Assembly: GCF_004010195.1 (NCBI RefSeq)
Contig: NC_057760.1
Coordinates: forward strand, 1,802,776-1,866,775
Direction of reading: 5' to 3'
DNA: 64,000 nt
From: Chiloscyllium plagiosum
Taxonomy: Eukaryota
The notes below the pieces were generated by a model that did not search any database, was not told where the DNA came from, and saw nothing but the letters and a program-made list of their open reading frames with translations. Below, in pieces: positions 831 to 64,000 of the stretch (the first letter of the stretch is position 1; every line of letters starts with the position of its first letter). Made by a program: the position numbers and the translations under genes.

Positions 831-899
831 CAGAGATCACAGAGTTAAGTAGCATAGATAGGTAACTAATAGGTAAACAGTGGCAAAAACAAAAATATA

Positions 900-9544: not shown

Positions 9545-9744
9545 GTAGGTGTGAATATTCCCTGTGCCGGTCAGAGCGTCCAGCCCATCCAGCAGTGAAT
9601 GAACACTCTGATCTGACCGTGTCAGATCTCACATTGTGTCACCTGAGCGCTGTGCTTGCTTCTGGTTTGTTCAGTCCAGTTCATCTCTGGGAGTACAGAC
9701 TCCACCCGTGCTAACCTGTGGATATCCACTGCAGCCTTCTGAGA

Positions 9745-10865
9745 CAGTGTAGAGGGAGCTTTACTCTGTACCTAATTCGGTGCTGTCCCTCGCCTCGGAG
9801 TGTTTGGTAGGGACCGTGTAGGGAGAGCTTTACTCTGTACCTGACCCCATGATGTCGCTGTCCCTGGGATGGTGGGGACAGTGTAGAGGGAGCTTTACTC
9901 TGTACCTGACCCCATGATATCGCTGTCCCTGGGATGGTGGGGACAGTGTAGAGGGAGCTTTACTCTGTATCTAATCCTGTGCTGTCCCTGTCACTGGGAA
10001 TGTTTGATGGGGAACAGTATAGAGAGAGCTTTACTCTGTATCCATCCCAATGCTGTCCCTGTCTTTGGATTTTGATGGGGGGGGGGCAACGGTGTAGAGG
10101 GAGCTTTACTCTGTATCTAACTTCGTGCTGTCCCTGTCCCTGGGAGTGTTTGGTTGGGGGACATTGTAGAGGAAGCTTTACTCTGTACCTAACCCCATGC
10201 TGTCCCTGTCCCTGGGATGGGGGGGACAGTGTAGAGGGAGCTTTACTCTGTATCTAACCCCGTGCTGTCCCTGGGGGGTGGGGGGACAGTGTAGAGGGAG
10301 CTTTACTCTGTATCTAACCCCGTGCTGTCCCGATCCCTGGGATGGGGGGGAGGACAGTGTAGAGGGAGCTTTACTCTGTACCTAACCCCGTGCTGTCCCT
10401 GTCCCTGGGACAGGGGGGGTACAGTGTAGAGGGACCTTTACTCTGTATCTAACCCCGTGCTGTCCCTGGGATGGGGGGACAGTGTAGAGGAAGGTTTACT
10501 CTGTACCTAACCCCGTGCTGTCCCTGTTCCTGGGATGTAGGGAGGGGACAGTGTAGAGTGAGCTTTACTCTGTATCTAACCCCATGCTGTCCCTGTCCCT
10601 GGGATGGGGGGTACAGTTTAGAGGGAGCTTTACTCTGTACCTAACCCCGTGCTGTCCCTGTCCCTGGGATGGGGGGCGGGGGGACAGTGTAGAGGGAGCT
10701 TTACTCTGTATCTAACCCTGTGCTGTCCCTGTCCCTGGGATGGGGGGGGACAGTGTAGAGGGAGCTTTACTCTGTATCTAACCCCGTGCTATCTCTCTCC
10801 CTGAGATGGGGGGGGGACAGTGTAGAGGGAGCTTTACTCTGTACCTAACCCCGTACTGTCCCTGT
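9745..10865 (+). repeat. Intronic minisatellite of the 72-bp family (gtgtagagggagctttactctgtatctaaccccgtgctgtccctgtccctggga…gggaca); many units here are shorter variants
   Basis: Directly visible tandem units. The same family fills introns at 46.3-64 kb. Confidence 0.95.
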
Positions 10866-10957
10866 CCTCGGGGTGCCTCCTCCAGTATTGTGGTGTACAT
10901 CCTGGCAATGGTGAGGGTGTAGTTTCTTGATTCCTACCCCTTCCCTTTCTGTTTCAG

Positions 10958-11244: not shown

Positions 11245-12365
11245 ATCAGTGCTGACCTCTCACCCCGACCAATGTGGGAGGGGGTAGTCCAGAGTAGGTG
11301 CTGACCTCTCACCCTGTCCCTGTGGGTCGGGGTCAGTGCTGACCTCTCACCCTGTCCCTGTGGGCAGAGTCAGTGCTGACCTCTCACCCTGTCCCTGTGG
11401 GCAGGGTCAGTGCTGACCTCTCACCCTGTACCTGTTGGCGGAGTCAGTGCTGACCCCTCACCTTGTCCTGTGGGCAGAGTCAGTGCTGACCCCTCACCTT
11501 GTCCTGTTGGCGGAGTCAGTGCTGACCCCTCACCTTGTCCTGTTGGCGGAGTCAGTGCTGACCTCTCACCTTGTCCTGTTGGCGGAGTCAGTGCTGACCC
11601 CTCACCTTGTCCTGTTGGCGGAGTCAGTGCTGACCCCTCACCTTGTTCTGTGGGCAGAGTCAGTGCTGACCTCTCACCTTGTCCTTTAGGTGGGGTTAGT
11701 GCTGACCTCTCACCCTGTCCCTGTGGGTGGTGTCAGTGCTGACCTCTCACCTTGTCCTGTAGGTGGGGTCGGTGCTGACCTCTCACCCTGTCCCTGTGGG
11801 TGGAGTCAGTGCTGACCTCACCCTGTCCATGTGGACGCCGTCAGTGCTGACCTCTCACCCTGTCCTGTGGGCAGTGTCAGTGCTGATCTCTCACCTTGTC
11901 TCTCTGGGTGGTGTCAGTGCTGACCTCTCACCTTGTCCTGTGGGTGAGGTCAGTGATGACCTCTCACCTATCCTTGTGGGTGGAGTCAGTGCTGACCTCT
12001 CACCTATCCTTGTGGGTGGAGTCAGTGCTGACCTTTCACCTTGTCCTGCGGGTGTCAGTGCTGACTTCTCACCCTGTCCCTGTGGGCGGGGTCAGTGCTG
12101 ACCTCTCACCCTGTTCCTGTGGGCAGGGTCAATGTTGACCTCTCACCCTGTCCCTGTGGGCAGGGTCAGTGCTGACCTCTCACCCTGTCCCTGTGGGTGG
12201 AGTCGGTGCTGACCTCTCACCTTGTCCTGTGGGCGGGGGTTAGTGCTGACCTTTCACTCTGGCCATGTGAGTGGAGTCAGTGCTGACCTCTCACCTTGTC
12301 CCAGTGAGTGGGATTAGTGTTGACCTCTCACCTTGTCCTGTGGGCGGTGTCAGTGTTGACCCCTC
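11245..12365 (+). repeat. 36-37-bp minisatellite (gtcagtgctgacctctcaccttgtcctgtgggcgga)
   Basis: Tandem units; 12-aa periodicity in the ORF track (GGVSADPSPCPV). Confidence 0.95.
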
Positions 12366-35584: not shown

Positions 35585-36600
35585 CTTTAACGTCCGCCTG
35601 AAAAGGCAGACGGGGCCTTGGTTTAACGTCTTGACCGACAGACAGCACCACTGACAGTGCGGCACTCCCTCAGTGCTGACCCTCCCACAGCACCCGCTCC
35701 CTCAGCACTGACCCTCCGACAGTGCGGCACTCCCTCAGCACTGACCCTCCCACAGCGCCCGCTCCCTCAGCACTGACCCTCCCACAAAGCCCACTCCCTC
35801 AGTGCTGACCCTCTCACAGTGCCCGCTCCCTCAGCAGTGACCCTCCGACAGTGCGGCACTCCCTCAGCACTGACCCTCCCACAGCGCCCGCTCCCTCAGC
35901 ACTGACCCTCCCACAGTGCCCACTCCCTCAGCACTGTCCCTCCGACAGCACCCGCTCCCTCAGCACTGACCCTCACACAGTGCCCACTCCCTCAGCACTG
36001 ACCCTCACACAGTGCCCACTCCCTCAGCACTGACCCTCACAGTGCCCACTCCCTCAGCACTGACCATCCCACAGTGCCCACTCCCGACCCTCCCACAGCA
36101 CCCACTCCATCAGCACTGACCCTCCCACAGCACCCACTCCATCAGCACTGACCCTCCCACAGCACCCACTCCATCAGCACTGACCCTCCCACAGCACCCA
36201 CTCCATCAGCACTGACCCTCCCACAGCACCCACTCCCTCAGTGCTGACCCTCCGACAGCACCCGCTCCCTCAGCGCTTACCCTCCCACAGCACCCACTCC
36301 CTCAGCGCTGACTCTCCAACAGCACCTACTCCCTCAGCGCTGACGCTCCAACAGCGCCCGCTCCCTCAGCACTGACCCTCCAATAGCGCCTACTCCCTCA
36401 GCGCTGACGCTCCAACAGTGCCCGCTCCCTCAGCACTGACCCTCCGACAGTGTCCACTCCCTCAGCGCTGACCCTCCAACAGTACCTGCTCCTTCAGCGC
36501 TGACCCTCCGACAGTGCCCGCTCCCTCAGTGCTGCCCCTGAGGGTGTCAGCCTGGATTATGGGCCTGGAGTTTCTGGAGGGAGGTCGCGAACTCACTTGG
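35585..36600 (-). repeat. 32-bp minisatellite inside a DeuSINE/SacSINE-like element
   Basis: Reverse complement of the 6720-7330 unit. Flanked by Deu-like ggcagacggggccttggtttaacgtc and gtgtcagcctggattatg. Confidence 0.8.
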
Positions 36601-42174: not shown

Positions 42175-42705
42175 GCGGAGAGCTCCCTCTACACTGTCGC
42201 CATCAAACACTCCCAGGACAGGGACAGTACAGGATTAGAGTAAAGCTCTCTCTACACTGTCCCCCCCATCAAACACTCCCAGGACAGGACAGCACGGGGT
42301 TAGATATAGAGTAAAGCTCTCTCTACACTGTCCCCATCAAACACTCCCAGGACAGGGACAGCACAGGATTAGAGTAAAGCTCCCTCTACACTGTCCCCAT
42401 CAAACACTCCCAGGACAGGGATAGCACAGGATTAGAGTAAAGCTCTCTCTACACTGTCCCCATCAAACACTCCCAGGACAGGGATAGCACAGGGTTAGAT
42501 ACAGAGTAAAGCTCCCTCTACACTGTCGCTATCAAACACTCCCAGGACAGGGACAGCACAGGATTAGATACAGAGTAAAGCTCCTTCTACGTTGCCTCCC
42601 CATCAAATGCTGCCAGGACAGGGGCAGCACAGGGTAAATCTCCCTCTACACTGTCCCCACATCAAACACTCCCAGGACAGAGACAGCATGGGGTTAGATA
42701 CAGAG
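42175..42705 (-). repeat. 72-bp-family minisatellite, inverted orientation
   Basis: Reverse complement of the 9745-10865 unit. Runs into a gap. Confidence 0.95.
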
Positions 42706-46303: not shown

Positions 46304-46785
46304 GTGTAGAGGGAGCTTTACTCTGTATCTAACCTCGTGCTGTCCCTGTCCCTGGGAGTGTTTGATGGGGGGACAGTGTAGAGGGAGCTTTACTCTGTAT
46401 CTAACCCCGTGCTGTCCCTGTCCCTGGGAGTGTTTGATGGGGGGACAGTGTAGAGGGAGCTTTACTCTGTATCTAACCCCGTGCTGTCCCTGTCCCTGGG
46501 AGTGTTTGATGGGGGGACAGTGTAGAGGGAGCTTTACTCTGTATCTAACCCCGTGCTGTCCCTGTTTTTGGGAGTGTTTGATGGGGGGGACAGTGTAGAG
46601 GTAGCTTTACTCTGTATCTAACCCCGTGCTATCCCTGTCCCTGGGAGTGTTTGATGGGGGGGACAGTGTAGAGGGAGCTTTACTCTGTATCTAACCCCGT
46701 GCTGTCCCTGTCCCTGGGAGTGTTTGATGGGGGGACAGTGTAGAGGGAGCTTTACTCTGTACCTAACCCCGTGCTGTCACTGTCA
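46304..46785 (+). repeat. 72-bp intronic minisatellite upstream of repeat exon A
   Basis: 24-aa periodic translation CRGSFTLYLTPCCPCPWECLMGGQ. Further arrays at 47160-47320, 51408-51835, 52240-52750, 53515-54355, 62710-63295 and 63650-63935. Confidence 0.95.
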
Positions 46786-46836
46786 GTGTGCAATGTGTGC
46801 TTTACTCACCATTAATTACATGTGGTTTAATTTCAG

Positions 46837-47121
46837 GAGATAGATGATGATGATGATGATGATATCTCTGAGATCCTGAAAACCTCTCCGATGTCAATGA
46901 GGGACCGTCTGGAGATGAAGGCCAATGAGCTGGTGGAGGAATTTAAGCAGCAACTGGAAGTGGGTGAGGAACCGAGAGAGAGTGAGGTCACGGTGTTGGA
47001 TAATCTCCTGAAGAAAGACACTGAGAACTTCTGCAAGGCTTATACGACAAACTATAACTGGGCCATTGGCAAGCTGAGGCAAACGTTGCTGAAGGGGTTT
47101 GAATGTTTCATCAAGGAGCAG
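46837..47121 (+). CDS. Repeat exon A (95 aa), RNF112/atlastin-like helical middle-domain unit
   Basis: tttaatttcAG…CAG/GTAACT, 285 nt, phase 0-0, open: EIDDDDDDDISEILKTSPMSMRDRLEMKANELVEEFKQQ…FCKAYTTNYNWAIGKLRQTLLKGFECFIKEQ. Confidence 0.85.
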
Positions 47122-47324
47122 GTAACTCAGATCCAAAATGTACAGTGCTTGTGAATGCAACAGTGTAGAGGGAGCTTTACTCTGTATCTAACCCTGTGCT
47201 GGGAGTGTTTGATGGGGGGGACAGTGTTGAGGGAGCTTTACTCTATATCTAACCCCGTGCTGTTCCTGTCCCTGGGAGTGTTTGATGGGGGGTGGGGGGA
47301 CAGTGTAGAGGGAGCTTAACTTGT

Positions 47325-50300
47325 GTTTTTGGGATCCTTGAGGGGGAGCAGCCCAAGTCGTTATCCGCATAGGCACCAACGGCATTGTAGGAAAAGGGAT
47401 GGAGATGTAAGGCAGATATTCAGGGAGATAGGGTGTAAGCTTAGAGGTAGAACAAACAGTTGTTATCTCTGGTTTGTTGTCTGTCCACGTGCGATTGAGG
47501 TGAGGAACAAGGAGCGAACAGAGCTGAGCACATGACTACAGGTTTGGTGCAGGAGGGAGGGATTCAGATACCTGGATAATTGAGGCTCATTCTGGGACAA
47601 GTGGGACCTCTACAACTGGATGGTCTACACCTGAACCAGAGGGGTACCAATATCCTGGAGGGTGGAATTTGCTAATGCTCTTTGGGAGAGTTTAAACTAA
47701 TTCAGCAGGGGAATTGGAACCTTAAACGTAGTTCCAGTGTTCAGGAGGTTCGCGTAGTGAGGTCAGTAATAATGTTTCAAGGTTGTAGGAGTGTACTGGC
47801 AGGCAGGGAGGTGGTTTGTAGTGTGTCTAGTTCAACATCAGGAGCATCCGGAATAAGATGCTCTGGAATAAGGTGAACTTGCAGCATGGGTTGGTACCTG
47901 GGACTTCGATATTGTCATTTTGGAGATATGGATAGAGTAGAGACAGGAATGGTTGTTGCAGGTTCCGAGATTTAGATGTTTCAGTAAGAAAAGAGAAGAT
48001 TGTAAAAGAAGAGGAGGTGTGGCAGTGTTAGTCAAGGACTCTATTACGGTGGCAGAAAGGACATTAGAGAACTTGTCAACTGAGGTAGTATGGGCTGAGG
48101 TTAGAGACAGGAAAGGAGAGGTCACCCTGTTGGGAGTTACATATCAGCCTCGGAAAAGTTCCAAAGATGATCGCAAAGATGATCCTGGATAGGAGTGAAA
48201 GTAACAGGGTAGTTGTTATGGGGGGGCTTTAACTTTCTAAATATTGACTGGGAATACTATAGTTCAAGTACTTTAGGTGGGTCAGTTTTTGTCCAATGTG
48301 TGCAGGATGGTTTCCTGATACAGTATGTAGACAGGCCAATAAGGGATGAGGCCACACTGGATTTGGTAATGGGTAATGAACCTGGCCAGGCATTAGATTT
48401 GGAGGGAGGTGAGCACTTTGGTGATAGTGACCACAATTCAGTTTACTTTATTGATGGAGAGCGATAGGTATATACCGCAGGGCAAGAGTTATAGCTGGGG
48501 GGAAAGGCAATTATGATGCGATTAGGCAAGATTTAGGACACACAGGATGGGGAAGTAAACTGCCGGGGACATGCACAATTGAAATGTGAAACATATTCAA
48601 GGAACAGCTACTGAGTGTCCCTGATAAGTATGTACCTGTCAGGCAGGGAGGAAGTGGTTGAGCGTGGGAGCTGTGGTTTACTGAAGAAGTGGAATCTCTT
48701 GTCATGAGAAAGAAGAAGGCTTACGTTAGGATGTACAAAGTTAAAAATCACACAACACCAGGTTATAGTCCAACAGGTTTAATTGGAAGCACACTAGCTT
48801 TCGGAGCGACGCTCATTCATCAGGTGAAGGAGTGTCGCTTTGAAAGCTAGTGTGCTTCCAATTAAACCTGTTGGACTATAACCTGGTGTTGTGTGATTTT
48901 TAACTTTGTTCACCCCAGTCCAACACCGGCATCTCCAAATTATGACTACGTTAGGATGAGATGTGAAGACTCGGGGCGCTTGAGCGTTACAAGTTAACCA
49001 GGAAGGACGTAAAGAGAGAGCTAAGAAGAGCCAGGAGGAGACATGAGAAGTCCTTGGCAGCGAGGATCAAGGAAAACCCTAAAGCTTTCTATCGGTATAT
49101 CAGGTTAAAAGAATGACTCAAGTGAGATTAGGGCCAATCAAGGACAGTAGTGGGGAATTGTGCATGGAGTCCAAAGAGATAGGAGAGACACAAAATGAAT
49201 ATTTTTTGTCAGTATTCACACAGGAAAAAGACAATGTTGTCGAGGAGAACAGAGATACAGGCTACTACACCAGGTGGGATTGAGGTTGATAAGGACATGT
49301 TAGTAATTCTGGAAAGTGTGAAAATAGATAAGTCCCCTGGGCCAGATGGGATTTATCTGAGGATTCTCTGGGAAGCTGGGGAGGAGATTGCCAAGTCTTT
49401 GGCTCTGATCTTTATGCCGTCATTGTCTACAGGAATAGTGCCAGGAGACTGGTGGATAGCAAATGTTGTTCCCTTGTTCAAGAAGAGGAGTAGAGACAAC
49501 CCTGGTAATTATAGACCAGTGAGCCTTACTTCGGTGTGGGTAAAGTGTTGGAAAGGATTATAAGAGATGGGATTTATAATCATCTAGAAAGGAATAAGTT
49601 GATTAGGGATAGTAAACATGGTTTTGTGAAGGATAGTTCTTTGAGATGGTGACCGAACAGGTGGATGAGGGTAAAGTGGTTATGTGGTGTATATGGATTT
49701 CAGTAAAGTGTTTAATAAGGTTCCCCCCGGTAGGCTATTGCAGAAAATACAGAGGCATGGGATTGAGAGTGATTTAGCAGTTTGGATCAGAAATTGGTTA
49801 ACTGTAAGAAAACAGAGGGTGATGGTTGATGGGAAATGTTCATCCTGGAGTTCAGTTACTAGTGGTGTACCGCAAGGATCTGTTTTGGGGCCACTGCTGT
49901 TTGTCTATGAATGACATGACCTGGATGAGGGTATAGAAGGATGGGTTAGTAAATTTGCAGATGACANNNNNNNNNNNNNNNNNNNNNNNNNNNNNNNNNN
50001 NNNNNNNNNNNNNNNNNNNNNNNNNNNNNNNNNNNNNNNNNNNNNNNNNNNNNNNNNNNNNNNNNNNNNNNNNNNNNNNNNNNNNNNNNNNNNNNNNNNN
50101 NNNNNNNNNNNNNNNNNNNNNNNNNNNNNNNNNNNNNNNNNNNNNNNNNNNNNNNNNNNNNNNNNNNNNNNNNNNNNNNNNNNNNNNNNNNNNNNNNNNN
50201 NNNNNNNNNNNNNNNNNNNNNNNNNNNNNNNNNNNNNNNNNNNNNNNNNNNNNNNNNNNNNNNNNNNNNNNNNNNNNNNNNNNNNNNNNNNNNNNNNNNN

Positions 50301-50642
50301 NNNNNNAGGTATACAAGATAATGAGAGGCATAGATAGAGTCGATAGCCAGAGACTATTTCCCAGGGCAGAAATGACTAACACGAGGGGTCATAGTTTTAA
50401 GCTGGTTGGAGGAAAGTATAGAGGGGATGTCAGAGGCGGGTTCTTTACACAGAGAGTTGTGAGAGCATGGAATGCGTTGCTAGCAGCAGTTGTGGAGGCA
50501 GGGTCATTGGGGACATTTAAGAGACTCCTGGACATGCATATGGTCACAGAAATTTGAGGGTGCATACATGAGGATCAGTGGTCGGCACAATATCGTGGGC
50601 TGAAGGGCCTGTTCTGTGCTGTACTGTTCTATGTTCTATGTT
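47325..50642 (+). mobile_element. Near full-length decayed CR1 LINE in the A-B intron
   Basis: IRIGTN and DGLHLN (ORF1); GFNFLNIDW and SDHNSV (APE); NYRPVSLTS and VPQGSVLGP (RT); ctatgttctatgtt tail. Contains a gap. Confidence 0.9.
48734..48946. mobile_element. Foldback Penelope-derived insert with 12-bp TSD and hammerhead core
   Basis: tacgttaggatg at 48722-48733 and 48947-48958. Inverted arms of about 85 bp. Minus strand 48792-48826 reads cac-CTGATGA-a-TGAGC-gtc-GCTCC-GAAAG-CTA-gtg. Confidence 0.8.
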
Positions 50643-50644
50643 TT

Positions 50645-51400
50645 AGCTGCGACTCCACTTTCAAGGAGCTATGAACCTGCACTCCAAGGTCTCTTTGTTC
50701 AGCAACTCCCCAGGACCTGACCATTATGTGTATAAGTCCTGACCTGATTTGCTTTTCCAAAATGCAACACCTTGCATTTATCTAAATTAAACTCCATCTG
50801 CCTCCCCTCAGCCCATTGGCCCATCTGATCCAGATCCTGTTGTAATCTGAGGTAACCTTCTTTGCTGTCCACTACACCTCCCATTTTGGTGTCATCTGCA
50901 AACTTACTAACTCTACCTCCTATGTTCACATCCAGATCATTTATATAATTTAAAAGCAGTAGACCCAGCACCGATCCTTGTGGCACTCCACTGGTCACAG
51001 GCCTCCAGTCTGAAAAACAACCCTCCAATTCCACCCTCTGTCTTCTACCTTTGAGCCAGTTTTGTATCCAAATGGCTAGTGCTCCCTGTATTCCATGAGA
51101 TCTAACCTTGCTAATCAGTCTCCCATGGGGAACCTTGCCAAACACCTTATTGAAGGCCATACAGATCACATCCACTGCTCTGCCCTCAACAATCCTCTTT
51201 GTTACTTCTTCAACAATGCAATAAAGTTAGTGAGACATGATTTCCCACGCACAAAGCCATGTTGACTATCCCTAATCAGTCCTTGCCTTTCCAAATACAT
51301 GTACACCCTCTCCCTCAGGATTCCCTCCAACAACTTGCCCACCACCAATGTCAGGCTCACTGGTCTTCGTTCCTGGCTTTTCCTTACCACCTTTCTTACT
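50645..51400 (-). mobile_element. CR1 RT fragment
   Basis: VPQGSVLGLL…SKFADDTK (ORF 50699-51175). Confidence 0.88.
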
Positions 51401-51883
51401 TAGTCAATATCTAACCCGGTGCTGTCCCTGTCCTGGGAGTGTTTGATGGGGGACAGTGTAGAGGGAGCTTTACTCTGTATCTAACCCGGTGCTGTCCCTG
51501 TCCTGGGAGTGTTTCATGGGGGGACAGTGTAGAGGGAGCTTTATTCTGTATCTAACCCTGTGCTGTCCCTGTCCCTGGGGGTGTTTGATGGGGGGGACAG
51601 TGTAGAGAGAGCTTTACTCTGTATCTAACCCCGTGCTGTCCCTGGGAGTGTCTGATGGGGGCACAGTGCAGAGGGAGCTTTACTCTGTATCCAACCCCAT
51701 GCATACTCTGTTCTGGCTGTGTCGGATGATGACCGGTGCTCAGGAAGCTTTACATTGTGTCTAACTCCCAGGAATGTTTGATGGTGGGACAGTGTAGAGG
51801 GAGCTTTACTCTGTATCTAACCCTGTGCTGTCCCTGCCAGTGTGTGTTTTACTCTTCATTAACAGCATGCGGTTTGATTTCAG

Positions 51884-52159
51884 GAGATAGATGACGACAA
51901 TTTCAATGAGATCCTGAAAATCTCTCCAATGTCAATGAGGGACCGTCTGGAGACAAAGGCCGATGAGCTGAAGGGTGAATTTAAGCAGCAACTGGAAGTG
52001 GGTGAGGAACAGAGAGAGAGTGAGGTCACGGAGTTGGATAATCTCCTGAAGGAAGAGATTGAGAACTTCTGCCCAGCCTACACGAGGCAGTTCCATCGGG
52101 TGATTTGTACCCTGAGGGAGAGGTTGCTGCAGGAGTTTAAAGACTTCATCAAACTGCAG
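51884..52159 (+). CDS. Repeat exon B (92 aa)
   Basis: tttgatttcAG…CAG/GTAACT, 276 nt, phase 0-0: EIDDDNFNEILKISPMSMRDRLETKADEL…FCPAYTRQFHRVICTLRERLLQEFKDFIKLQ. Confidence 0.85.
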
Positions 52160-52800
52160 GTAACTGTTAGAAAATGATCAGAGCTTCGTGACAGGACAGG
52201 AATACCAACAGTTAAAATGCACCTTTATCCAGTACTAATGCTGTGCTGTCCCTGTCCCTGGGAGTGTTTGATGCGGGGGACAGTGTAGAGGGATCTTTAC
52301 TCTGTATCTCACCCCATGCTGTCATTGTGCGTGTTTGATGTGGGGATAGTGTAGAGAGAGTTTTACTCTGTATCTAACACTGTGCTGTTCTTGTCCTGGA
52401 AGTGTTTGATGGGGGGACAGTGTAGAGGGAGCTTTACTCTGTATCTAACCCCATGCTGTCCCTGACTCTGGGATTGTTTGATGGGGGGACAGTGTAGGGG
52501 GAGCTTTACTCTGTATCTAACCCCGTGCTGTCCCTGTCCCTGGGTGTTTTTGATGGGGAGGACAGTGTAGAGGGAGCTTTACTCTGTATCTAACCCCGTG
52601 CTGTCCCTGTCCCTGGGAGTGTTTGATGGGGGGACAGTGTAGAGGTAGCTTTACTCTGTATCTAACCCCGTGCTGTCGCTGTCCCTGGGAGTGTTTGATG
52701 GGGGGACAGTGTAGAGGGAGCTTTACTCTGTATCTAACCCTGTGCTGTCCCTGCCAGTGTGTGTTTTACTCTTCATTAACAGCATGCGGTTTGATTTCAG

Positions 52801-53076
52801 GAGATAGATGACGACAATTTCAATGAGATCCTGAAAACCTCTCCGATGTCAATGAGGGACCGTCTGGAGACAAAGGCCAATGAGCTGGTGGAGGAATTTA
52901 AGCAGCAACTGGAAGTGGGTGAGGAACCGAGAGAGGGTGAGGTCACGGAGTTGGATAATCTCCTGAAGAAAGAGACTGAGAACTTCTGCAAGGCTTATAC
53001 CACAAACTATAACTGGGCCATTGGCATCCTGAGGCAAACGTTGTTGAAGGGGTTTGAATGTTTCATCAAGGAGCAG
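52801..53076 (+). CDS. Repeat exon C (92 aa)
   Basis: tttgatttcAG…CAG/GTAACT, 276 nt, phase 0-0, open. Confidence 0.85.
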
Positions 53077-53203
53077 GTAACTCAGATCCAAAATGTACAG
53101 TGCTTGTGAATGCAACAGTGTAGAGGCAGCTTTACTCTGTATCTGTGCTGCCTCTGTCGTTGTGTGCTTTGCTCACCATTAACTGCATGTGGTTTAATTT
53201 CAG

Positions 53204-53479
53204 GAGGTAGGTGATGATGATATCTCTGTGATCCTGAAAACCTCTCTGATGTCAATGAGGAACCGTCTGGAGACAAAGGCCAATGAGCTGAAGGGTGAAT
53301 TTAAGCAGCAACTGGAAGTGGGTGAGGAACAGAGAGAGAGTGAGGTCACGGAGTTGGATAATCTCCTGAAGAAAGACACTGAGAACTTCTGCAAGGCTTA
53401 TACCACAAAATATAACTGGGCCATTGGCAACCTGAGGCAAATGTTGCTGAAGGGGTTTGAATGTTTCATCAAGGAGCAG
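53204..53479 (+). CDS. Repeat exon D (92 aa)
   Basis: tttaatttcAG…CAG/GTAACT, 276 nt, phase 0-0. The preceding intron is only 127 nt. Confidence 0.83.
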
Positions 53480-54410
53480 GTAACTCAGATCCAAAATGTA
53501 CAGTGCTTGTGAATGCAACAGTGTAGAGCGAGCTTTACTCTGTACCTAGGCCCATGCTGTCCCTGTCCCTGGGAGTGTTTGATGGGGGGGACAGTGTAGA
53601 GGGAGCTTTACTCTGTACCTAAGCCCATGTTGTCCCATGCCTGGGAGTGTTTGATGGGGGGACAGTGTAGAGGGAGCTTTACTCTGTATCTAACACCGTG
53701 CTGTCCCTGTCCCTGGGAGTGTTTGATGGGGGGACAGTGTAGAGGGGGCTTTACACTGTATCTAACCCCGTGCTGTCCCTGTCCCTGGGAGTGTTTGATG
53801 GGGGGACCGTGTAGAGGGAGCTTTACTCTGTATCTAACCCCGTGCTGTCCCTGTCCCTGGGAGTGTCTGATGGGGGGACCGTGTAGAGGGAGCTTTACTC
53901 TGTGTCTAACCCCGTGCAGTCCCTGTCCCTGGGATTGTCTGATGGGGGCACAGTGTAGAGGGAGCTTTACTCTGTATCCAATCCCATGCATACACTGTTC
54001 TGGCTGTGTCTGATGATGACCGGTGCTCAGGAAGCTTTACATTGTGTCTAACTCCCAGGAATGTTTGATGGGAGCAGAGTAGAGGGAGCTTTACTCTGTA
54101 TCTAACCCCGTGCTGNNNNNNNNNNNNNNNNNNNNNNNNNNNNNNNNNNNNNNNNNNNNNNNNNNNNNNNNNNNNNNNNNNNNNNNNNNNNNNNNNNTAA
54201 CTCTGTGCTGTCCCTGTCCTGGGAGTGTTTGATGGGGGACAGTGTAGAGGGAGCTTTACTCTGTATCTAACCCCGTGCTGTCCCTGTCCCTGGGAGTGTT
54301 TGATGGGGGGACAGTGTAGAGGGAGCTTTACTCTGTACCTAACCCCGTGCTGTCACTGTCAGTGTGCAATGTGTGCTTTACTCACCATTAATTACGTGGT
54401 TTAATTTCAG

Positions 54411-54680
54411 GAGATAGATGATGATGATGATGATGATGATGATATCTCTGAGATCCTGAAAACCTCTCCGATGTCAATGAGGGACCGTCTGGAGACGAAG
54501 GCCAATGAGCTGGTGGAGGAATTTAAGCAGCAACTGGAAGTGAATGACCTGGAGTTGAATAAATCCCTGAAGAAAGAGACTGAGAAGTTCTGCAAGGCTT
54601 ACACGAAACAGTTTAACAGGGCGATTGGCAAACTGATGGAGCAGATGCTGAAGCAGTTTGAACATTTCACCAAACAGCAG
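54411..54680 (+). CDS. Repeat exon E (90 aa)
   Basis: ttaatttcAG…CAG/GTAACT, 270 nt. Nine-Asp run and an in-frame 7-codon deletion. Ends …FCKAYTKQFNRAIGKLMEQMLKQFEHFTKQQ. Confidence 0.85.
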
Positions 54681-55299
54681 GTAACTCCGATACAAATTGA
54701 ACAAAGCTGTGCTACGGGACAGGGGATAGCAAGGCAGACCCAGTCAGCATCATCAACACTGGATTTGCAACAAAGTGAAATTAAAATGTTCCATGGCCCT
54801 CACAATTGCTCACTTATTCCTCAGCAAACATTAGGAATACTAGGTCTTGGACACTAAGTTTACAACTTCAACAAAATGAAGAATTGGGTATTAATATTGT
54901 AACTTCAGCAGAGCACAGATGGACAACAAAACAGTCTAACTGATATCTATAATCTCTGGCCAATCTTCTTTCATCCTCACCCCCACTCACACCAACAGAC
55001 AGACTGACCCAGTTCCAGTTCAATAACGGTTTCAGTGGTGAATACCAAGCCTTCATGAAATCCTTAGACTAATGGTTATTATATCCCATGCACATCTGAC
55101 TATATATTAATTGATCTGATTTATTATCAGGTGTACTGAAATCCAGTGAAAAGCTGTGTTTCTGAGCAGTACAGGCAGATCATCGAAAGGAAGGATGCAC
55201 AGATCAGAAAGACTTAGACAGAGGCGTACAGGTTATATTGCACAGGGCGTGTACTAGACGAGATCAGTGTTAGCCAGGACAGCAATGTTTCAGGCTAGA

Positions 55300-56570
55300 C
55301 AGTCCATTCATCAGTCTAATAACGGCCAGGAGGAAGCTATCCATGAACCTGCTGGTGCGTGCGTTCAGGTTTCTGTTTCTTCTGTCTGATGGAAGAGTCA
55401 GGGATCATTACCACGCGTGGGGGTGGGGGGAGGATGGCGATGGGTCTTTGATGTTGTCAGCAGCCTTTCCGCAGCAGCGAGCCTTGTAAATGGAGTCCAT
55501 GGATGGAAGGTTGGCTTCCCTGATGGTCTGGGCTGTGCACATCACCCTCTGTAGCTTCTTACTGTCCTGGGCAGAGCAGTTGCTATACCAGGCTGTTCTG
55601 GACCAGGACAGTGTGCGGTCAATGGTGCACCTGTAGCCACTGGCAAGGATCCGTATGGACACACCGAATTTCCTGAGGAAGAAGAGCCATTGTTGTGCCT
55701 TGGACCACTTGCCAACGCATGAAAGTCGGACAGGTGGTCAGTTATTGTCACTCCAAGCAACTTGACACTCTCCACCCTCTCACACTCTACTCCATTGATG
55801 TAGATGGGGCTGTGTTCTCTTTCTTCCTTTCTAAAGTCATTGATCAGACCTTTAGTTTTGCTGATATGGAGAGAGAGGTTGTTCTCATTGCACCACATCA
55901 TCAAGCCCTCTATCTCCCTTCTGTATTTTGACTCGTTGTTGTTAGATAGTCGTCTACCATGGTGGTGTCATCAGTGAACTTGTAGATAGTATTCATTTGG
56001 AATTTGGAAACACAGTCATGGGTGTACAGAGAGTTCGGGAGGAGGCTGAGGATGCATCCTTGGTGGGCGGGGGGGGCTCTAGTGTTGAGCATTATTGTGG
56101 AGGAGGTGCAGTTCCTATCCTCAATGATTACAGTCTGTGGGTGAGAAAGCTGAGGATCCAGTGGCAAAGGCAGAGCCCTGACCAAGGTCACAGATTTTTG
56201 AGATCAGTCTGGAGGGGATAATGATGTTGAACGCAGAACTGTAGTCAATGAGCAGGAGTCTGATGTAAGTGTCCTTGTTGTCCAGATGTTCCAGGAATGA
56301 GTGCACGACTTCGGGAAGTGACACCCGCTGCTGACCGGTTACATCGATAGGCAGATTGTAGGGGATTGAGGCAGGCTAGGAGACTGGAGTGGATGTGGGC
56401 CATGATCAGCCTCTCGAAGCACTTCATGATGACTGAGGTCAGAGCCACTGGGCGGTCATCATTAAGGCACATTGCATGCACTTTCTTAGGTATGGGGATG
56501 ATGATGGTGGTCTTCTTGAAGCAGGAGGGGACTATGATATGTAGGAGAGAGAGTTGGAATTCTGAAGTCA
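55300..56570 (-). mobile_element. Rex1/Babar-like LINE RT remnant
   Basis: PSCFKKTTIIIPIPKK…RPVALTSVIMKCFERL; LLIDYSSAFNII; QGCILS…YTHDC…YKFTDD. Confidence 0.85.
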
Positions 56571-56989
56571 CCAGTTAATGCAAACAGCCTCGGAGACATC
56601 TCGAGATTTTTACTTATTTCTTATTCTGAGGGATTCTTTCTCTGAATTTTCAAACAGTTAATAAAGAGAGAATAACTTGTAAAAGCTGTTTGTCCCTGAA
56701 CATAGCAACGTCTCAGTGTGAAAACATCTACTGTAGCCTTTGAACAGTAGTTAACCTGAATTATCTGTCCAGGCCAGTTCCCAACAGCAAATGTCTTCCT
56801 GTTGTTCTCTTCTTTCTTTCAACAAGTTGCTGTTCAAAGTTCAAAGCTCAATTCTCACCCTCATCTCTCAGTTTCAAATCAAAAAGGGCAAAGATCAAAG
56901 TAAAACAATGATGACCTCAGAATGTGTCCACCCTCAAAAGAGTGAAATGCCATTTCAATTGTGCAATTCATGACAAGGTTAATAACATG

Positions 56990-59000
56990 GAAACAATCAA
57001 CCAGGTAAAGACAGGCCAGATCAATATGTGGCTGAGGAGCTGGTTTTGGTGGCAGGGTTTTCAGTTCTTGGATCATTGGTATCTCTCATGGGGTAGAGGT
57101 GACCTGTACAAGAGGGACAGGTTAATTTGCTAATGTTACCTGGGAGGGTTTAAACTACTTTGGTGGGGGGGAGGGGGAAGGTGGGACTCTGAATAAGAGA
57201 TTGACCATTGAGACTGAGGACTGGGATATTATAGCCATAACAGAAACGTGGCAGAGAAGGGTAGGACTGGCAGCTCAGTGTTCCAGGATACAGAAGATAC
57301 AGGCGTGACAGAAGGACAAGTAAGCAAGGAGGGGGCAGAAATTGCCCTTTTGTTAAACGAGGACATAACAATAGTACTTAGAGAGGATATTCTTAAGGGG
57401 TCATCAAATAAGGCCATATGGTTTGAACTTCGAAACAAGAAGGGAATGGTCACTCTATTGGGACTGTATTATAGACCCCCAAATAGTCAGCTCCTCTTCC
57501 ACCTCATATGGCGTTAACATAGAATTCACCAACGTCCAAATCTCTCCACCCCCAACCTCATCCCAGGTCCAGCCCTCCCTCTCCACTCCACCCCTTAACC
57601 TGACCCTACCTGTCCATCTTCCTTCGAACCTATCCATTCCACCCTTCCCAATGACCAATCACAATCACCTCCTACCTGCATCCACCTATCACCATCCCAC
57701 CTACCTTTCCCCAGTCCCAGTCTCTCCCTCTATTTAGTTCTCAGCCCCCTAGCCCTCCCCCAGTCCTAATGAAAGGTTCCAACCTGTAATATCGACTCCT
57801 GTGATGCTGCTTGACCTGCTGTGCTTTTTCAGCTCCACTCTTATCCACTCTGGATTAACCACAGGAAATGCAGGCTTACAGGGTTAGGTGAGTGGGGGCA
57901 GGTCCAGGTGGAATGCTGTTTGGAGAGTTAGTATGGATTTATTGGGCCAAATGGTTTGTTTCCATTATGTAGGGATTCTGTGATCGATCTATGATGAGTT
58001 AATCTTATAATAGAGAGCTCTATTTGGGAATTGTCCAATTCTCTTCAGTTCTCATTCTTCTTTCTCATATCCTCCTCTACTTACTAGTTGACACACCTGT
58101 ATATTCACATACAACACGAGAAAATGCTAGAGAAACTCAACAGGTCTGGTAGAGAGAAACCAAAATTAAAATTGAGTCCAGTAACCCTTTGTTAGGAGAG
58201 TTCCAAGACTTAATGACCCGCCTTGGAAACTGTTTAATTTTCACTTCCATGAGAATTACAGTGTAAGTGGAAGAGCCTTGGGAAAAGTTGATGAACAGAG
58301 GGATCTGGGAGTTCAGATCCATTGTACCCTGAAGGTTGCTGCACAGGTGGACAGAGTGGTGAAGAAGGCATCTGGTATACTTGTCTTCATCGGACTGAGT
58401 ATTGAGTATGAGAGCTGGCAGGTCATGTTAAAACTGTACAAGACTTTGGTTCGGCTGCATTTGGAATACTGTGTACAGTTCTGGTCACCACATTACCAAA
58501 AGGATGTGGACGCTTTGAAGAGGGTGCAGAGAAGGTTTACGAGGATGTCACCTGGTATAGAAGGTGATAGCTATGAAGAGAGGTTGAGTAGGTTATGTTT
58601 GTTTTCATTAGAGAAAAGGAGATTGAGGGGGGACCTTATTGAGGGCTACAAAGTCATGAAGGATAGAGACAAGTTGGGTAGAAACAGGCATTTTCCCAGG
58701 GTGAGGGATTCAATAACGAGAGATCACGCATTCAAGGTGCAATGTGAAACATTTAAGGGGGATACATATGGAAAGTACTTCACACAGAGGGTGATAGATG
58801 CCTGGAACACGTTGCCAGCGGAGGTAGTAGAGGTAGGCACAGTAGATTTATTTAAGGTGTGAGATGCATGATGCATGAGTCGGAGTGGTGGGAGTAGAGC
58901 GATACAGATGCTTTGGAAATGGGTGATAGGTTTTGACAGTGGATTTGGATCAGCTCAGGTTTGGAGGGTCAAAGTGCCTGTTCCTGGACTTTAAATTATT
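56990..59000 (+). mobile_element. CR1 fragments (APE piece 56990-57490; 3' end 58250-59000) with a Penelope piece (~57490-57850)
   Basis: IWFELRNKKGMVTLLGLYYRPPNS; ORF 58278-58862 is the CR1 C-terminus. Confidence 0.8.
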
Positions 59001-60111
59001 TTTGTTCTTTAATTGGTATTATTTCTGGATCAGGATGGCATGTAACTTTACTCTCTGGACAATATGCCTAATAATTTTTTTTTTGTTCAACGTTTTACAA
59101 GTTGGCAAACACATGACACACTAACAGTTTGTGGTCAACAAAAATACAAAGAAACAGGTCCCAAAAACAAACGCTCCATGTCCCCCATAGCCAACAGGAA
59201 AAGCAGCACACAGGACCAACAAAGTAAACTATATCACATTCCTCCAAATAAAAACACACAGTGAAACAGCAGGAAAACAGTGCAGGAAAGCAAGCCGCCT
59301 TCAAAATTAACTCTTCCTCAGAGGTACACAAAACACAATGCACATAATGGAAACACGATTCAATCACATCCAGCATGAGAAGATACAGTGCAAACAGTGA
59401 GGGAGCAGATCCATTCCAAGGCAGAGTCCACTCACAAACTGGGGTCCACCCCCAATACAGAAGCCGTTCCCAGAGTTCACCATCTGACCTAGAACCCACT
59501 TCCCAAACCAGAACCTGCCTCCGACAACAGGTTTCGCTCCCGGTGGCAGGTCCTTCTTCTGTCGGCAGGGTTCACACACTGAATGCAAAGGCTTGACACT
59601 CCCATGAGGTCTGGTCTACTCACACTGCCACAATCTGTTCCCAGGGGCCAAGCCCCTACTCAGTGAATTTGGAGCCACCAAACAGGTTCAAGTCCATGAA
59701 CAGGAATCAGGGCAGGGCAGGGCAGGTAAGAAGTTCAGTCCAAACAGCTGACTGTGGAACAATGAATATGCCCCACCATCAAATTGCCTCTTCCACTCCC
59801 ACATCTTCTCCCAAGATCACAGTATGCGTAATACATTCTGTTGGTCAGCCAGGACTTTCCTGTTTGGTCCTGGTTGGTCCTGGTTGACAACCACAATTAA
59901 TGTGATCAACCTGGTTCCAATTGCTACAACAAGCAACTTAAACACCAAGGTTAAAACGTTAACAAAAATTAACAATTTGCAATGAATAATGTGACTTTAG
60001 TAGAGCATATCTGAAGAAAGAGGCAATCCAATTAATATCCAGTCTTTTGGGTGAACACAAGGGAGAATTTTAAAGGCAACATAAAAGAATTGTAATTTGC
60101 CAGTTCAATAC

Positions 60112-60877
60112 TGTTACGACATGGTGGTGAATCCCTCTGTTAACTAATCCAAATGCACAGAAAAGCTCACCTCGCCTCGTAATCTGTTCAAGTATAAGTG
60201 ACTGACAACTCCCAATTTCACTGTTAAAAGAAAAATATCAATTTAGTCTTTAACTCTAAAAGTGAATATTAAGCAACAACTATTTACAACTCTAAGCCTC
60301 CCTTCTCCGAACTGCTTGTTATCTGCCTTCAGATCTCTAACAATATACTGTTCCAATAAAAGCCCGTATGAAAATTACATCAACTTAATTTTCAAAACCA
60401 GACAGCTGCAGTCACTGGTGTTCTCTTCCCTCTGGCTGTAGATCTCCCTGGGTCATCTTCAGTCTTTTGCTACAAAGACGTTTCATATGAAAAGGTACCT
60501 TTGATAAAATGTTTTGAATGGCAGTCTGTTTTCATGGCAGTTTGTCTCTCTCACTGGCCAACTCTCAAAATGCCTGCTTTTTTATACCCCAAACATCGGA
60601 TTGTCTCATTGGTTCCAGGTTGGCGAAAACAATAAATTCAAATGTGATTGGGTTTTAGTATCTTGGGACATAACTTAAACTGGTTAAATTCAAATGCTTG
60701 TTAACGTAGCAACTAAAACTCAGGTAATTGTTTCACAGCCAAATGTTACATATTTTCAATTTTCCAGTACACTCTGAGACTGCTACTCAGTCATATGACA
60801 GGTGCTTGTAAGCGCTCCGTGTGTAATACAGCTTTCACTCTCTCAAAGGTACAGTGCATGCCTTCAACTTCCTTACA
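60112..60877 (-). mobile_element. Solo LTR, 766 bp, 4-bp TSD atac
   Basis: TGTTAC…TTACA termini. atac at 60108-60111 and 60878-60881. Homologous (inverted) to the LTR at 19398-20135. Confidence 0.85.
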
Positions 60878-61204
60878 ATACACATTTCAACAGTGAATAC
60901 TGGGAATATTCGATAGTGTTGACCTCCCCTCTGATAATTAAAACTGAAACACCCAGTGCAGACCACCTCCTCTGTAATCTGATAAAGAAGTGTGACAAGG
61001 GGTATAACCTACCTGTCATGCCCAGAATCTGTTATAAAGGGTTGGTTAAATGAAATGAATCCTCTTACTCACTCACCAATTAACAAGTAACAATTTATTT
61101 ATCTAACTCCAACAGTGAACAAATTTACAGACTTCCTAACAAACTGAACAATTACTCCCAAACTACTGCCTGTTCCCTCACTGAACATAATCCCGTTGGT
61201 AGGC

Positions 61205-62016
61205 AAAAGTGAGGACTGCAGATGCTGGAAACCAGAGTTTAGATCAGAGTGGTGCTGGAAAAGCACAGCAGGTCAGGCAGCATCTGAGGAGCAGGAGAAT
61301 CGACGTTTTGGGCATAAGGCCTTCTTCAGGAACTTCATCAGCGTGCCTGCAGGGTGGAGAGATAGGTCAGACGGGAGGGTGAAGCAGTTAGGTGGGAAGG
61401 GAGATTGGCCGGTAGGACAGGTCATGAGGATGGTGCTGAGCTAGAATGTTGGAATTGGGGTAAGGTGGGGAGAGGGGACATGAGCAAACTGGTGAAGTCC
61501 ACATTGATGCCCTGGGGTTGGAGGATCCTGAGGCGTTCTTCCTCCAGGCATCGGGTGGTGAGGGCATGGTGGTGGAGGAGGCTCAGGACCTGCATGTCCT
61601 CGGCTGAGTGGGAGGAGGAGTTGAAATGTTGGGCCACAGGGCGGTGGAGTTGATTGGTGCGGGTGTCCCAGAGATGTTCCCTGAAGCGCTCTGCGAGGAG
61701 GCTTCCAGTCTCCCCAATGTAGAGGAGACCGTTTCGGGACCAACCTTCCAGCTCAGCACCTGTCCTACCTGCCAATCTCCCTTCTCACCTAACCACTCCA
61801 CCCTCCTGTCTGACCTATCACCTCCATCCCCACCCCCATTCACCTATTGTACTCTTTGCTACCTTCTCCCTAGCCCCACCCCTCTCTCATTTATCTCTCC
61901 ACCCTGCAGGCACCCTGCCTCTTTTCCTCATGAAGGGCTTTTGCCCGAAATGTCAATTTTCCTGCTCCTCTGATGCTGCCTGACTTGCTGTGCTTTTCCA
62001 GCAGCGCTCTGATCTA
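61205..62016. mobile_element. Penelope-like element with GIY-YIG remnant and inverted pLTRs, inserted in an LTR-like sequence (~60990-62656)
   Basis: GLLYIGETGSLLAERFREHL…VAQHFNSSSH (ORF 61422-61775). Degenerate TSD aatccc(g/a)tt(g/a)gta(g/t)gca. Decayed hammerhead cores at both ends. Confidence 0.8.
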
Positions 62017-63335
62017 ATCCCATTAGTATGCAGTTTCAATAACCCAGGCCCCACTTATATAAATCCAATTAATAAGAATAGTAAATTAAACTTAGTCTCT
62101 CGAGGTTCACACAGAATGGATCGTACTGGATTTTCTGTATTTTACGTTCCGCTGATTGTACTGTCAGGCATGTTTTCTCTACGAATCATCTGTTCTCAAA
62201 GCCTCGCTCTTTAAATTCTGGTGTCAACAATATTTGCTAAATGTGCCACATACGTTTCAGATGGACAGTGTTTTTTTTAAGAGAGCTTTCTTGTGGAGAT
62301 TTCTTGTGAAAGCCTGATATCTCTTTCTCAGATAGCACTTTACTCTCATCGCTTTAGATGACAGTTCTTTCTCCCTCTAACTTTTAAATACATGCTTCTT
62401 TTATCCCCATGATTATATTTTAATTTCTTTACAATCGGATTGGTTCGAGGTTGTCAAAGTCATCAGATTTGAATTTAGTTGATCCTTAGTCTCCAAGTGC
62501 CTTTGTGAATTAATTGGCTGAATTTAAACTGTTGTCTGGGTAAAAATGCTGCTTGGGCCTACGAACTGAACAGCTTTTTGAGACATTGTCAATTCGAGCA
62601 CCTGCAGCTGCTCACAGACATTTATTTTTAAATCTCGAAGCAGCAAGGGACGTCACAGTGCTTACCCCAATTTACAATTTCCCCATTTTTACAGACCAAC
62701 TTCGTGGCAATAGGGACAGTTTGGAGAGAGCTTTAGAGGTAGCATTGCTCTGTAGCTAATACTGTGCTGTCCCTGTCTTGGGAGAGTATAATAGGGGCAG
62801 TGTAGAAGGAGTTTTACTCTGTATCTAACATGGTGCTGTCCCTGTATCCATGTCCTTGGAGTGTTTGATCAGGGACAATGTAGAGGGAGCTTTACTCTGT
62901 ATCTAACCCCATGCTGTCCCTGTCCCTTGGAGTGTTTGATGGAGGCACAGTGTAGAGGGAACTTTACTCTGAATCTAACCCCGTGCTGTCCCTGTCCCTG
63001 GGAGTGTTTGATCAGGGACAATGTAGAGGGAGCTTTACTCTGTATCTAACCCCATGCTGTCCCTGTCCCTTGGAGTGTTTGATGGAGGCACAGTGTAGAG
63101 GGAACTTTACTCTGAATCTAACCCCGTGCTGTCCCTGTCCCTGGGAGTGTTTGATGGGGGACAGTGTAGAGGGAGAGTTACTCTGTATCTAACCCCGTGC
63201 TGTCCCTGTCCCAGGGTGTGTTTGATGGGGGGACAGTGTAGAGGGAGCTTTACTCTGTATCTAACCCCGTGCTGTCTCTGTCCCTGGGCGTGTTTAATAA
63301 AGAGGTCTAAGCTAATCCGTGTGTGTTGATTTCAG

Positions 63336-63611
63336 CATCGGGGTAATGAGGATATCATGGTGAGACTGAAGACCACTCCAGCATCGATGAGGAAGTGTCT
63401 GGATAAAAAGGCCTGTGAGCTGATCAGGGATTTCCAGTCACATCTGTTGCTGAGTGAGGGGGAGAGTGAGAAGGAGGTCACTGAATTGAAGGAACATCTG
63501 AATGAGATGATTGAGAACTTCTGCATATCACACGGGAATACATTCACCTCAGCAATCGAGAAACTGAGGCAGGAGAAACTGAAAGAGTTTGAAAGTTTCA
63601 TCAATCAACAG
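63336..63611 (+). CDS. Repeat exon F (92 aa, divergent paralogous unit)
   Basis: gttgatttcAG…CAG/GTAAGT, 276 nt, phase 0-0: HRGNEDIMVRLKTTPASMRKCLDKKACELIRDFQSHL…FCISHGNTFTSAIEKLRQEKLKEFESFINQQ. Confidence 0.85.
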
Positions 63612-63984
63612 GTAAGTCAAATAAAACAAGAACAAAGCATTTAAGTATTGCAGTGTGGAGGGAGCTTTACTCCGTATCTAACCCCGTGCTGTCCCTGTCC
63701 TGGGAGTGTTTGATGGAGGCACAGTGTAGAGGGAGCTTTACTCCGTATCTAACCCCATGCTGTCCCTGTCCTGGGAGTGTTTGATGGGGGGGACAGTGTA
63801 GAGGCAGCTTTACTCCGTATCTAACCCCGTGCTGTCCCTGTCCTGGGAGTGTTTGATGGGGGGGACAGTGTAGAGGGAGCTTTACTCTGAATCTAACTCC
63901 CTGCTATCCCTGTCCTGGGAGTATTTGATGGGGATGTCAAAGCTGAGCATTTCTCTCAATTTAATCTGCATGTATTGATTTCAG

Positions 63985-64000
63985 CAGCAGGATAACAAGG
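63985..64000 (+). CDS. Start of probable repeat exon G (QQDNK…), truncated by the window
   Basis: Same ttgatttcAG acceptor after a minisatellite array. Tandem CAGCAGCAG acceptor, so the exact start is ambiguous. Confidence 0.6.

Follow-up and report, generated by a model that had tools for sequence, protein, structure and literature searches.

In a 64,000-nt stretch of NC_057760.1 from Chiloscyllium plagiosum (hereafter the window, whose numbering is used unless a contig is named) lies a tandem series of homologous coding exons, which very probably represent the middle of one shark gene whose product combines a RING-less GTPase head of the RNF112 branch, a stalk in which many three-helix bundles follow one another, and a hydrophobic anchor. 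Exon A (46837..47121, 285 nt) is of the D type and encodes an acidic loop, helices 2-3 of one bundle and helix 1 of the next. It is followed on the same plus strand by exon B (51884..52159, 276 nt), exon C (52801..53076, 276 nt), again of the D type, exon D (53204..53479, 276 nt) and exon E (54411..54680, 270 nt), the final member of the D-type block. Exon F (63336..63611, 276 nt, plus strand) belongs to a second subtype, and exon G, also on the plus strand, has just its start in the window (63985..64000), the remainder of its 267 nt lying past the window end. A preliminary description of this DNA had listed the six complete exons, with their lengths, shared splice sites and open phase 0-0 frames, and a probable seventh; all seven were confirmed.

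Each of exons A-F is preceded by TTTCAG, ends in CAG/GTAA, is in phase 0-0 and is free of stops (6/6), and the splice sites of G are the same. Mean column identity among A-F is 75%. At the protein level A-E share 64-91% identity with one another, compared with 39-45% between A-E and F. Closely similar repeats occur in P0177, a 2133-aa protein listed under Chiloscyllium punctatum: exon D is closest to its twelve D-type repeats (77-87% identity), exon F is 84% identical to its repeat 15 and exon G 85% identical to its repeat 16. Exon E has lost seven codons in frame within the helix 2-3 loop and begins with a (GAT)n tract encoding poly-Asp. Exon B is a mosaic in the repeat tree, its 5' part being C-like and its 3' half resembling the repeats of the paralogue P0003/P0005, which suggests that paralogues have exchanged sequence or that B is of an older type. 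The (GAT)n tracts at exon starts (46843-46863 and 54417-54443) give poly-Asp loops between helix 1 and helix 2; loop length varies, with 7 Asp in A, 10 in E and 3-4 in B and C.

Two further intact repeat copies of the F/G type, which the preliminary description had not included, lie downstream of the window on the minus strand (loci L003 and L002, G000:C51:1872473-1872748 and 1884252-1884527). They are 96% and 78% identical to F and sit within an 18-kb block bounded by gaps. This block is probably a misoriented contig that carries another F/G block comparable to repeats 7-8 in P0177; a real inversion is a possible alternative. When neutral evolution was simulated on the nucleotide tree of nine copies, all nine stayed stop-free in 0 of 2000 runs, a mean of 6.1 of the nine gaining a stop. 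The nine copies have therefore been retained as coding sequence.

Relationship of the repeat unit to RNF112

A profile of the repeat exons matched 18 single-bundle RNF112 proteins with a probability of 96.2% (E 2.7e-9, 67 columns), on the same stretch that the preliminary description had quoted. Its top match among solved structures in the PDB was a Xenopus RNF112 construct (9JJU, E 0.0027). The proposed kinship with RNF112 was thus borne out, whereas an alignment proposed there for atlastin-1 found no counterpart at the profile level: against nine non-vertebrate atlastins the probability was 0.3%, no match, and atlastin was ruled out as the source of the repeat on that score. Matches to the C-terminal part of GBPs had been anticipated as well and did not appear, PF02841 being absent from all seven RNF112-type proteins scanned (0/7) and present in the atlastin control P0138. 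On single exons A-F, no Pfam family reached its cut-off (0/6). These profiles identify the repeat unit as RNF112's three-helix middle bundle.

The exon boundaries are shifted relative to the bundle. Helix 1 has its own separate 75-nt exon in phase 0-0, and helices 2-3 together with the tail make up the terminal exon; the repeated exon is therefore a permuted unit. All nine repeat exons can be aligned with the terminal exon over their first ~70 residues, where no more than 1 of 500 shuffles scored as high, and with the helix-1 exon over their final ~15, where 0-22 of 500 shuffles did so; this short match is weak in C (22) and D (16). The alignments indicate that each exon encodes helices 2-3 of bundle n plus helix 1 of bundle n+1, in agreement with the circular permutation suggested earlier. 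The idea of a multiplied stalk also stood, with at least seven tandem units here and 19 in P0177.

Gene and protein architecture

A search of longer proteins, in which 8000 candidates were scored, returned nine that matched the exon profile, six of which carry a GBP N-terminal GTPase domain. The top match, P0001, is an NCBI model from Chiloscyllium plagiosum named 'dst2-like kinase' and is made up of exons A, C, D, E, F and G of the window itself, with B skipped. We reject the kinase identity, as Pfam finds no kinase domain. The model begins within exon A and has no GTPase exon. Its last exon (L014:3069-3212) is in a decayed frame, which we take to resemble a long terminal repeat (LTR) gag sequence, and is likely an annotation artefact.

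The complete architecture is seen in P0177, in which a RING-less GTPase is followed by 19 bundles and then by a hydrophobic tail rich in Gly and Ala, reaching a 19-residue hydropathy of 2.26. Along its stalk come six D-type repeats, two of the G type, another six of the D type, then F, G and three diverged units. Of these, repeats 14-16 run in the D-type/F/G order of the window, and repeats 17-19 match the unplaced contigs C30283, C61282 and C18897 of this genome at 88, 68 and 76%. From sequence, P0177 is an orthologue model of a complete gene with 19 bundles. GTPase and repeats also share one gene in P0004 and P0002, and the hydrophobic C-terminal segment is present in P0177 and most full-length relatives. 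No RING was found in P0004 and P0163 (by Pfam), in P0177 or in any of 11 shark rows.

GTPase exons of C. plagiosum itself lie on C17, C84494, C99885 and C34267. Of six tblastn stretches, five show 78-92% identity to P0177 and the sixth, which extends into an intron, 66%. The motifs G1 GEERKGKS, G2 STTKG, G3 DTEG and G4 RD are intact in P0177 and in these unlinked exons, and the G1 arginine aligns with Arg195 of RNF112 (numbering inferred from Lys198). The GTPase head, with its G1-G4 motifs and arginine finger, is thus predicted to be active. Exons on C16843 and C54734 (L031 and L038) belong to a more distant RNF112-like paralogue, being 49-69% identical to close models; there are therefore at least two RNF112-like genes in this genome. 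Ordinary atlastin exons of its own are found on C9 and C10.

To examine the stalk we used an AlphaFold model of P0004, a protein with six bundles, made with an 84-sequence alignment (mean predicted local distance difference test, pLDDT, 79.5; predicted template modelling score, pTM, 0.51). After the GTPase the model shows a helix at 353-385 and then repeats of a short, a 22-residue and a 42-53-residue helix, the long linking helices being 421-473, 513-565, 608-658, 701-750 and 797-838. The match to 9JJU stops at residue 450, in the middle of both the first long helix and the first repeat exon, which argues that one uninterrupted helix serves as helix 3 of a bundle and as helix 1 of its successor. 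The stacked bundles that had been expected of such a prediction are indeed present as serial bundles, and their joining by continuous helices of ~50 residues predicts a spectrin-like rod. Helix lengths would give ~4.5 nm per bundle ((53-22) x 0.15 nm), and a rod of ~55 nm if the 12 units in this genome form one gene, or ~85 nm for P0177. A single-sequence AlphaFold model of P0001 (mean pLDDT 44.7) was not used for fold searching; its helix pattern agrees with that of P0004.

Foldseek ranked RNF112 first for the P0004 model (E 1.4e-26), then atlastin-1 (E 2.5e-22) and then GBP1. Sey1p (5CA8) superposed on residues 46-731 with Z 17.8, a root-mean-square deviation (rmsd) of 15.2, 529 aligned residues and 11% identity. 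No naming was accepted from the ESM Atlas, where all feature matches were below 0.9 and all structure rows below the naming bar: Sey1/RHD3 reached a feature score of 0.86 and a template modelling (TM) score of 0.41, and the GBP row 0.80.

Expression and taxonomic spread

Exon F was listed for 24 public runs, of which 15 contain it, and four runs (X1, X10, X11 and X17) were mapped on 46800-64000. Among the matches listed, letters 7-282 of a 329-nt contig of X10 match 63336-63611, letters 32-306 of a 306-nt contig of X11 match 63336-63610, and a 306-nt contig of X1 matches 63333-63608 with 30 other letters. For exon F the contigs of all three runs thus start or stop within 3 nt of its borders and continue in letters that are not those of the intron. 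Also among the matches listed, a contig of X1 covers 46951-47082 of exon A with 0 differences, and a second X1 contig departs from the genome at 54677, the end of exon E, with 30 other letters. Depth in a unique intron bin (59428-60001) was 0 in X1, X10 and X11. In X10, record 11 joins 53380-53476, the 3' end of exon D, to 52798-52910, a start of the B/C type; the D side shows 0 differences from D and 4 from A and C, and the start side equals no assembled exon, having 3 differences from C and 6 from B. The repeat copies are transcribed and spliced head to tail. Of the spliced reads that the preliminary description had called for, one X10 contig chaining two repeats was found among the matches listed. 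In the raw single-cell run X17, of which ~6% was sampled, 0 reads were placed.

Searched against 1.84 billion representatives, the exon profile gave 37 protein matches with E <=0.001. At least two (P0037 and P0041) look spurious on visual inspection, and those with a named source belong to sharks, Xenopus, Hyla, sea turtles and alligators. We took a census of bundles in 122 proteins with a GTPase match of at least 250 residues (10 atlastins removed, isoforms kept separate, P0177 outside the set): 56 have at least two bundles and 23 at least four, 61 have one, and in 5 none was detected. Counts were 8 in Scyliorhinus, 10 in Lepidochelys, 7 in Xenopus, 6 in gar, 5 in Dermochelys (with a RING) and 2 in echidna, so that the form with several bundles extends beyond sharks to gar, frogs, turtles, crocodilians and echidna, and bundle number across the family ranges from 1 to 19. 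The rows of therian mammals and squamates have one bundle at most. No bird or teleost is among the rows listed, an absence not established by these word-seeded searches. Repeated bundles in another chondrichthyan, which had been proposed as a check, are thus found both in Scyliorhinus (8) and in C. punctatum P0177 (19). The turtle proteins P0087, P0057, P0093 and P0079 retain the RING alongside 3-5 bundles, and their database isoforms vary by complete bundles.

A quick GTPase tree united 10 shark rows in one clade (Shimodaira-Hasegawa-like approximate likelihood-ratio test, SH-aLRT, 100) among 49 RNF112-type rows and apart from 5 atlastins, and placed proteins with several bundles in several separate clades. 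P0004 matched 9JJU with E 4.9e-71, through the GTPase into repeat 1, compared with 1.4e-43 for ATL1. In a tree built from 108 repeats, 7 changes suffice to explain seven lineage labels (minimum 6; shuffled mean 46.7; 0 of 200 shuffles as low); the tree rests on 73 columns with long-branch warnings, and its placement of gar repeats in the shark group is probably false. This clustering by lineage may reflect separate expansions or homogenisation within lineages, and the trees fit both. The ratio of nonsynonymous to synonymous rates (dN/dS) among the nine copies was 0.75 under the GY model (2 x delta lnL 1.8 against 1), 0.65 under MG (5.2) and 0.84 under MGK; positive selection among the copies was tested and not supported. 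Amino-acid changes are densest at the junction of helix 3 and helix 1 in exons A-I (1.4 per site versus 0.6-0.9 elsewhere; permutation p 0.07, not significant).

Dozens of RING exons clustered on C37 at ~18-34 Mb match the RING of P0054, the coelacanth RNF112, and account for most of 67 non-GTPase matches. This cluster is probably of the TRIM type, and its similarity hints that the RNF112 RING may have been gained from a TRIM-type gene. Another GB1/RHD3 GTPase, P0178 of Allacma fusca (1622 aa), has precomputed matches to PF00012 (HSP70) and PF06723, and is a possible fusion or mis-join.

Functional interpretation

Several observations weigh against a single gene with head, rod and anchor that works as a tether. 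No GTPase exon occurs in the window or the next 119 kb (183 kb in all), the matching exons lying on other scaffolds with none linked to the array; sequence upstream of the window was covered by whole-genome searches, two of them with a stricter first look. The GTPase and Gly/Ala-rich tail that the preliminary description expected on either side of the array accordingly occur in related proteins and elsewhere in this genome on other scaffolds but fall outside the window, so that the link between head and array is inferred here. The sole terminal exon found in this genome (L050, G000:C18897, ~600-990, minus strand) is out of frame relative to P0009 at the start of the hydrophobic tail, which may be an error, a dead allele or a paralogue. 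None of the 15 runs containing exon F, including the three that yielded contigs, is recorded as RNA, and the X10 joint departs from the exon order of the assembly. Such a joint points to further copies in gaps or to allelic arrays, and the assembled array is probably collapsed or polymorphic. With a pTM of just 0.51 for P0004, how the rod as a whole is shaped is uncertain. The superposition of beta2-spectrin repeats 14-16 on residues 445-733 (Z 8.8, rmsd 11.9, 274 aligned) falls in the range of common helical arrangements. Finally, the high dN/dS, which under GY is indistinguishable from 1, suits weak constraint or immune pressure as readily as it does tethering.

We lean towards the view that a tail-anchored rod keeps the GTPase tens of nm off its own membrane and tethers or gathers membranes, exon number setting its reach. 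The C-terminal tail would anchor the protein, and the rod would present the head far from that membrane. Heads would dimerise during GTP hydrolysis as those of RNF112 do, so that membranes become tethered or gathered at a distance given by the number of repeat exons. On a stalk of such length, hinge movement by itself would probably not fuse bilayers, which favours tethering over fusion; for the tether function as such, the odds look even to us. As to origin, a segment that began within the helix-1 exon, spanned the intron and ended within the terminal exon may have been duplicated to give a symmetric exon, which would then have multiplied via unequal crossing-over aided by the intronic satellite.

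A GBP-like role in cell-autonomous immunity, in which the proteins coat or attack pathogen-containing membranes and the repeats serve as multivalent or decoy surfaces driven by pathogens, is the strongest alternative but seems unlikely as the principal explanation, yet it is compatible with tethering and the two are not mutually exclusive. GBPs coat pathogen membranes, and in the structural ranking they come directly behind RNF112 and atlastin. Such a role would fit the several paralogues with fast turnover (carpet-shark GTPase domains are just 71-90% identical in three pairs), the spread of bundle number from 1 to 19, the clustering of repeats by lineage and often by protein, and a dN/dS of 0.65-0.84 depending on the model. 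However, no dN/dS above 1 is supported, the junction clustering has a p of 0.07, Pfam finds no GBP C-terminal domain, and a literature search with immune or infection terms revealed no link. GBPs are described as interferon-inducible defence GTPases in the record of PMC9005921.

Near-neutral expansion is improbable. Here, satellite-driven copying of a symmetric exon would add bundles that are tolerated as spacers or spliced out, the working protein being an ordinary short RNF112-like fusogen. The 72-bp satellite does adjoin every exon, dN/dS under GY cannot be told from 1, blocks of identical repeats occur within proteins, and databases hold isoforms with fewer repeats (P0004 versus P0006; Dermochelys isoforms with 3-5). 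Nevertheless, all nine copies retain frame and splice sites, which the neutral simulations failed to reproduce even for stops alone (0/2000); the diverged subtypes F/G, J and K keep a constant order across Stegostoma, Hemiscyllium (which is without J and F/G) and Chiloscyllium models; and forms with several bundles recur in gar, frogs, turtles and crocodilians. Least probable is a GTPase-less rod gene, as in P0001, or a recently broken copy, which would account for the missing GTPase exon in the window, the 119 kb downstream and P0001, for the out-of-frame C18897 exon and for the two copies on the opposite strand, but has against it the 20 assembly gaps in the 183-kb region, the missing exon types on small unplaced contigs flanked by the same 72-bp satellite, a P0001 model that starts within exon A and ends in a decayed frame, and the complete congeneric model P0177.

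As a more speculative possibility, non-therian vertebrates may possess 'telescopic' RNF112-derived GTPases, in which the copy number of a symmetric exon, through recombination and alternative splicing, would set the distance from anchor to head between ~5 and ~85 nm. Sharks, gar, frogs, two turtle/crocodilian clades and echidna may each have gained or re-homogenised the extension independently under host-pathogen pressure, as a membrane-anchored counterpart of GBP coats.

Among known systems, RNF112 (neurolastin, ZNF179; Xenopus 9JJU-9JJX) is the closest GTPase by sequence, structure and tree, and shares the middle three-helix bundle, the arginine finger and, in relatives such as P0177, the C-terminal hydrophobic segment. 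It has one bundle whereas the shark genes have many (at least 7 in tandem here, 19 in P0177), and canonical RNF112, described as brain-specific, has an N-terminal C3HC4 RING that the shark models lack and some turtle proteins with several bundles (P0087) keep. According to PMC12012479, RNF112 comprises a RING and a GTPase domain, a single middle domain of three helices and a membrane helix by prediction, dimerises through its GTPase in the transition state with Arg195 required for hydrolysis, and remodels the endoplasmic reticulum when re-anchored; a term search of that text returned no mention of paralogues, sharks or repeated domains.

Atlastins (ATL1-3) have in common the GTPase fold and the order GTPase, bundle, anchor (the Foldseek match noted above); they form a separate clade and have a single bundle that the repeat profile does not match in the nine non-vertebrate atlastins. 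Multi-bundle stalks are known in Sey1/RHD3 and in GBPs, in fixed number, and that of Sey1/RHD3 consists of four diverged bundles. Sey1p/RHD3 likewise joins a GB1/RHD3 GTPase to a long multi-bundle stalk and a membrane anchor. However, the shark-type stalk is built of 1 to 19 near-identical exon copies, the GTPase is far closer to RNF112 than to Sey1/RHD3, and no Pfam match to a Sey1/RHD3-type GTPase or the Sey1_3HB stalk was obtained in the shark-type proteins scanned. GBP1-5 combine a related GTPase with an elongated helical part; they carry a prenylated end where shark-type proteins have an integral hydrophobic tail, and score much below RNF112. Spectrin rods offer a structural analogy, three-helix bundles being joined by one continuous helix in both, but the shark unit is shorter (92 residues), derives from the RNF112 stalk and is 6% identical to spectrin. 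With no spectrin Pfam match either, we rejected spectrin as a relative, the structural match being too weak for kinship.

We found no paper on RNF112-like proteins with several bundles in a literature search that covered subscription journals thinly, nor, in the literature searched, a description of a stalk that varies in copy number at one exon per bundle up to 19 units. From their sequences these are GTPases of the RNF112 clade that fail two canonical RNF112 features, the RING and the single middle domain. RNF112, known as a single-copy brain E3 ligase and GTPase, belongs to a fast-changing vertebrate gene family, whose members stand in databases under names such as 'dst2-like kinase', 'golgin-like', 'trichohyalin-like' and 'AKAP9'. 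Fusion of the atlastin type is explained by a short lever, with a GTPase dimer pulling a single three-helix bundle beside the membrane. A natural series of 1-19 bundles that keeps the catalytic site and the anchor may serve to ask how stalk length decides whether members of the dynamin superfamily tether membranes, fuse them or form coats.

Intronic and flanking sequence

The introns of the array carry a 72-bp minisatellite, found upstream of exon A at 46304..46784 (plus strand) and in similar arrays at 51408-51697, 52243-52753, 53518-53978, 54205-54360, 62858-63295 and 63651-63933. Its core lies within 130 bp of at least one side of the exon in all six cases (6/6), and it is a likely substrate for unequal crossing-over. 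Sixteen long frames upstream of the repeat array were tested and gave no other gene family, and Rfam gave 0 matches in the window. Other minisatellite arrays, with units of 32, 53, 65, 36 and 63 bp, occupy 6830-7329, 8292-8940, 9743-10867, 11298-12365, 35663-36529 and 42181-42688, and a fragment of a long interspersed nuclear element (LINE) endonuclease lies on the minus strand at 3519-4085.

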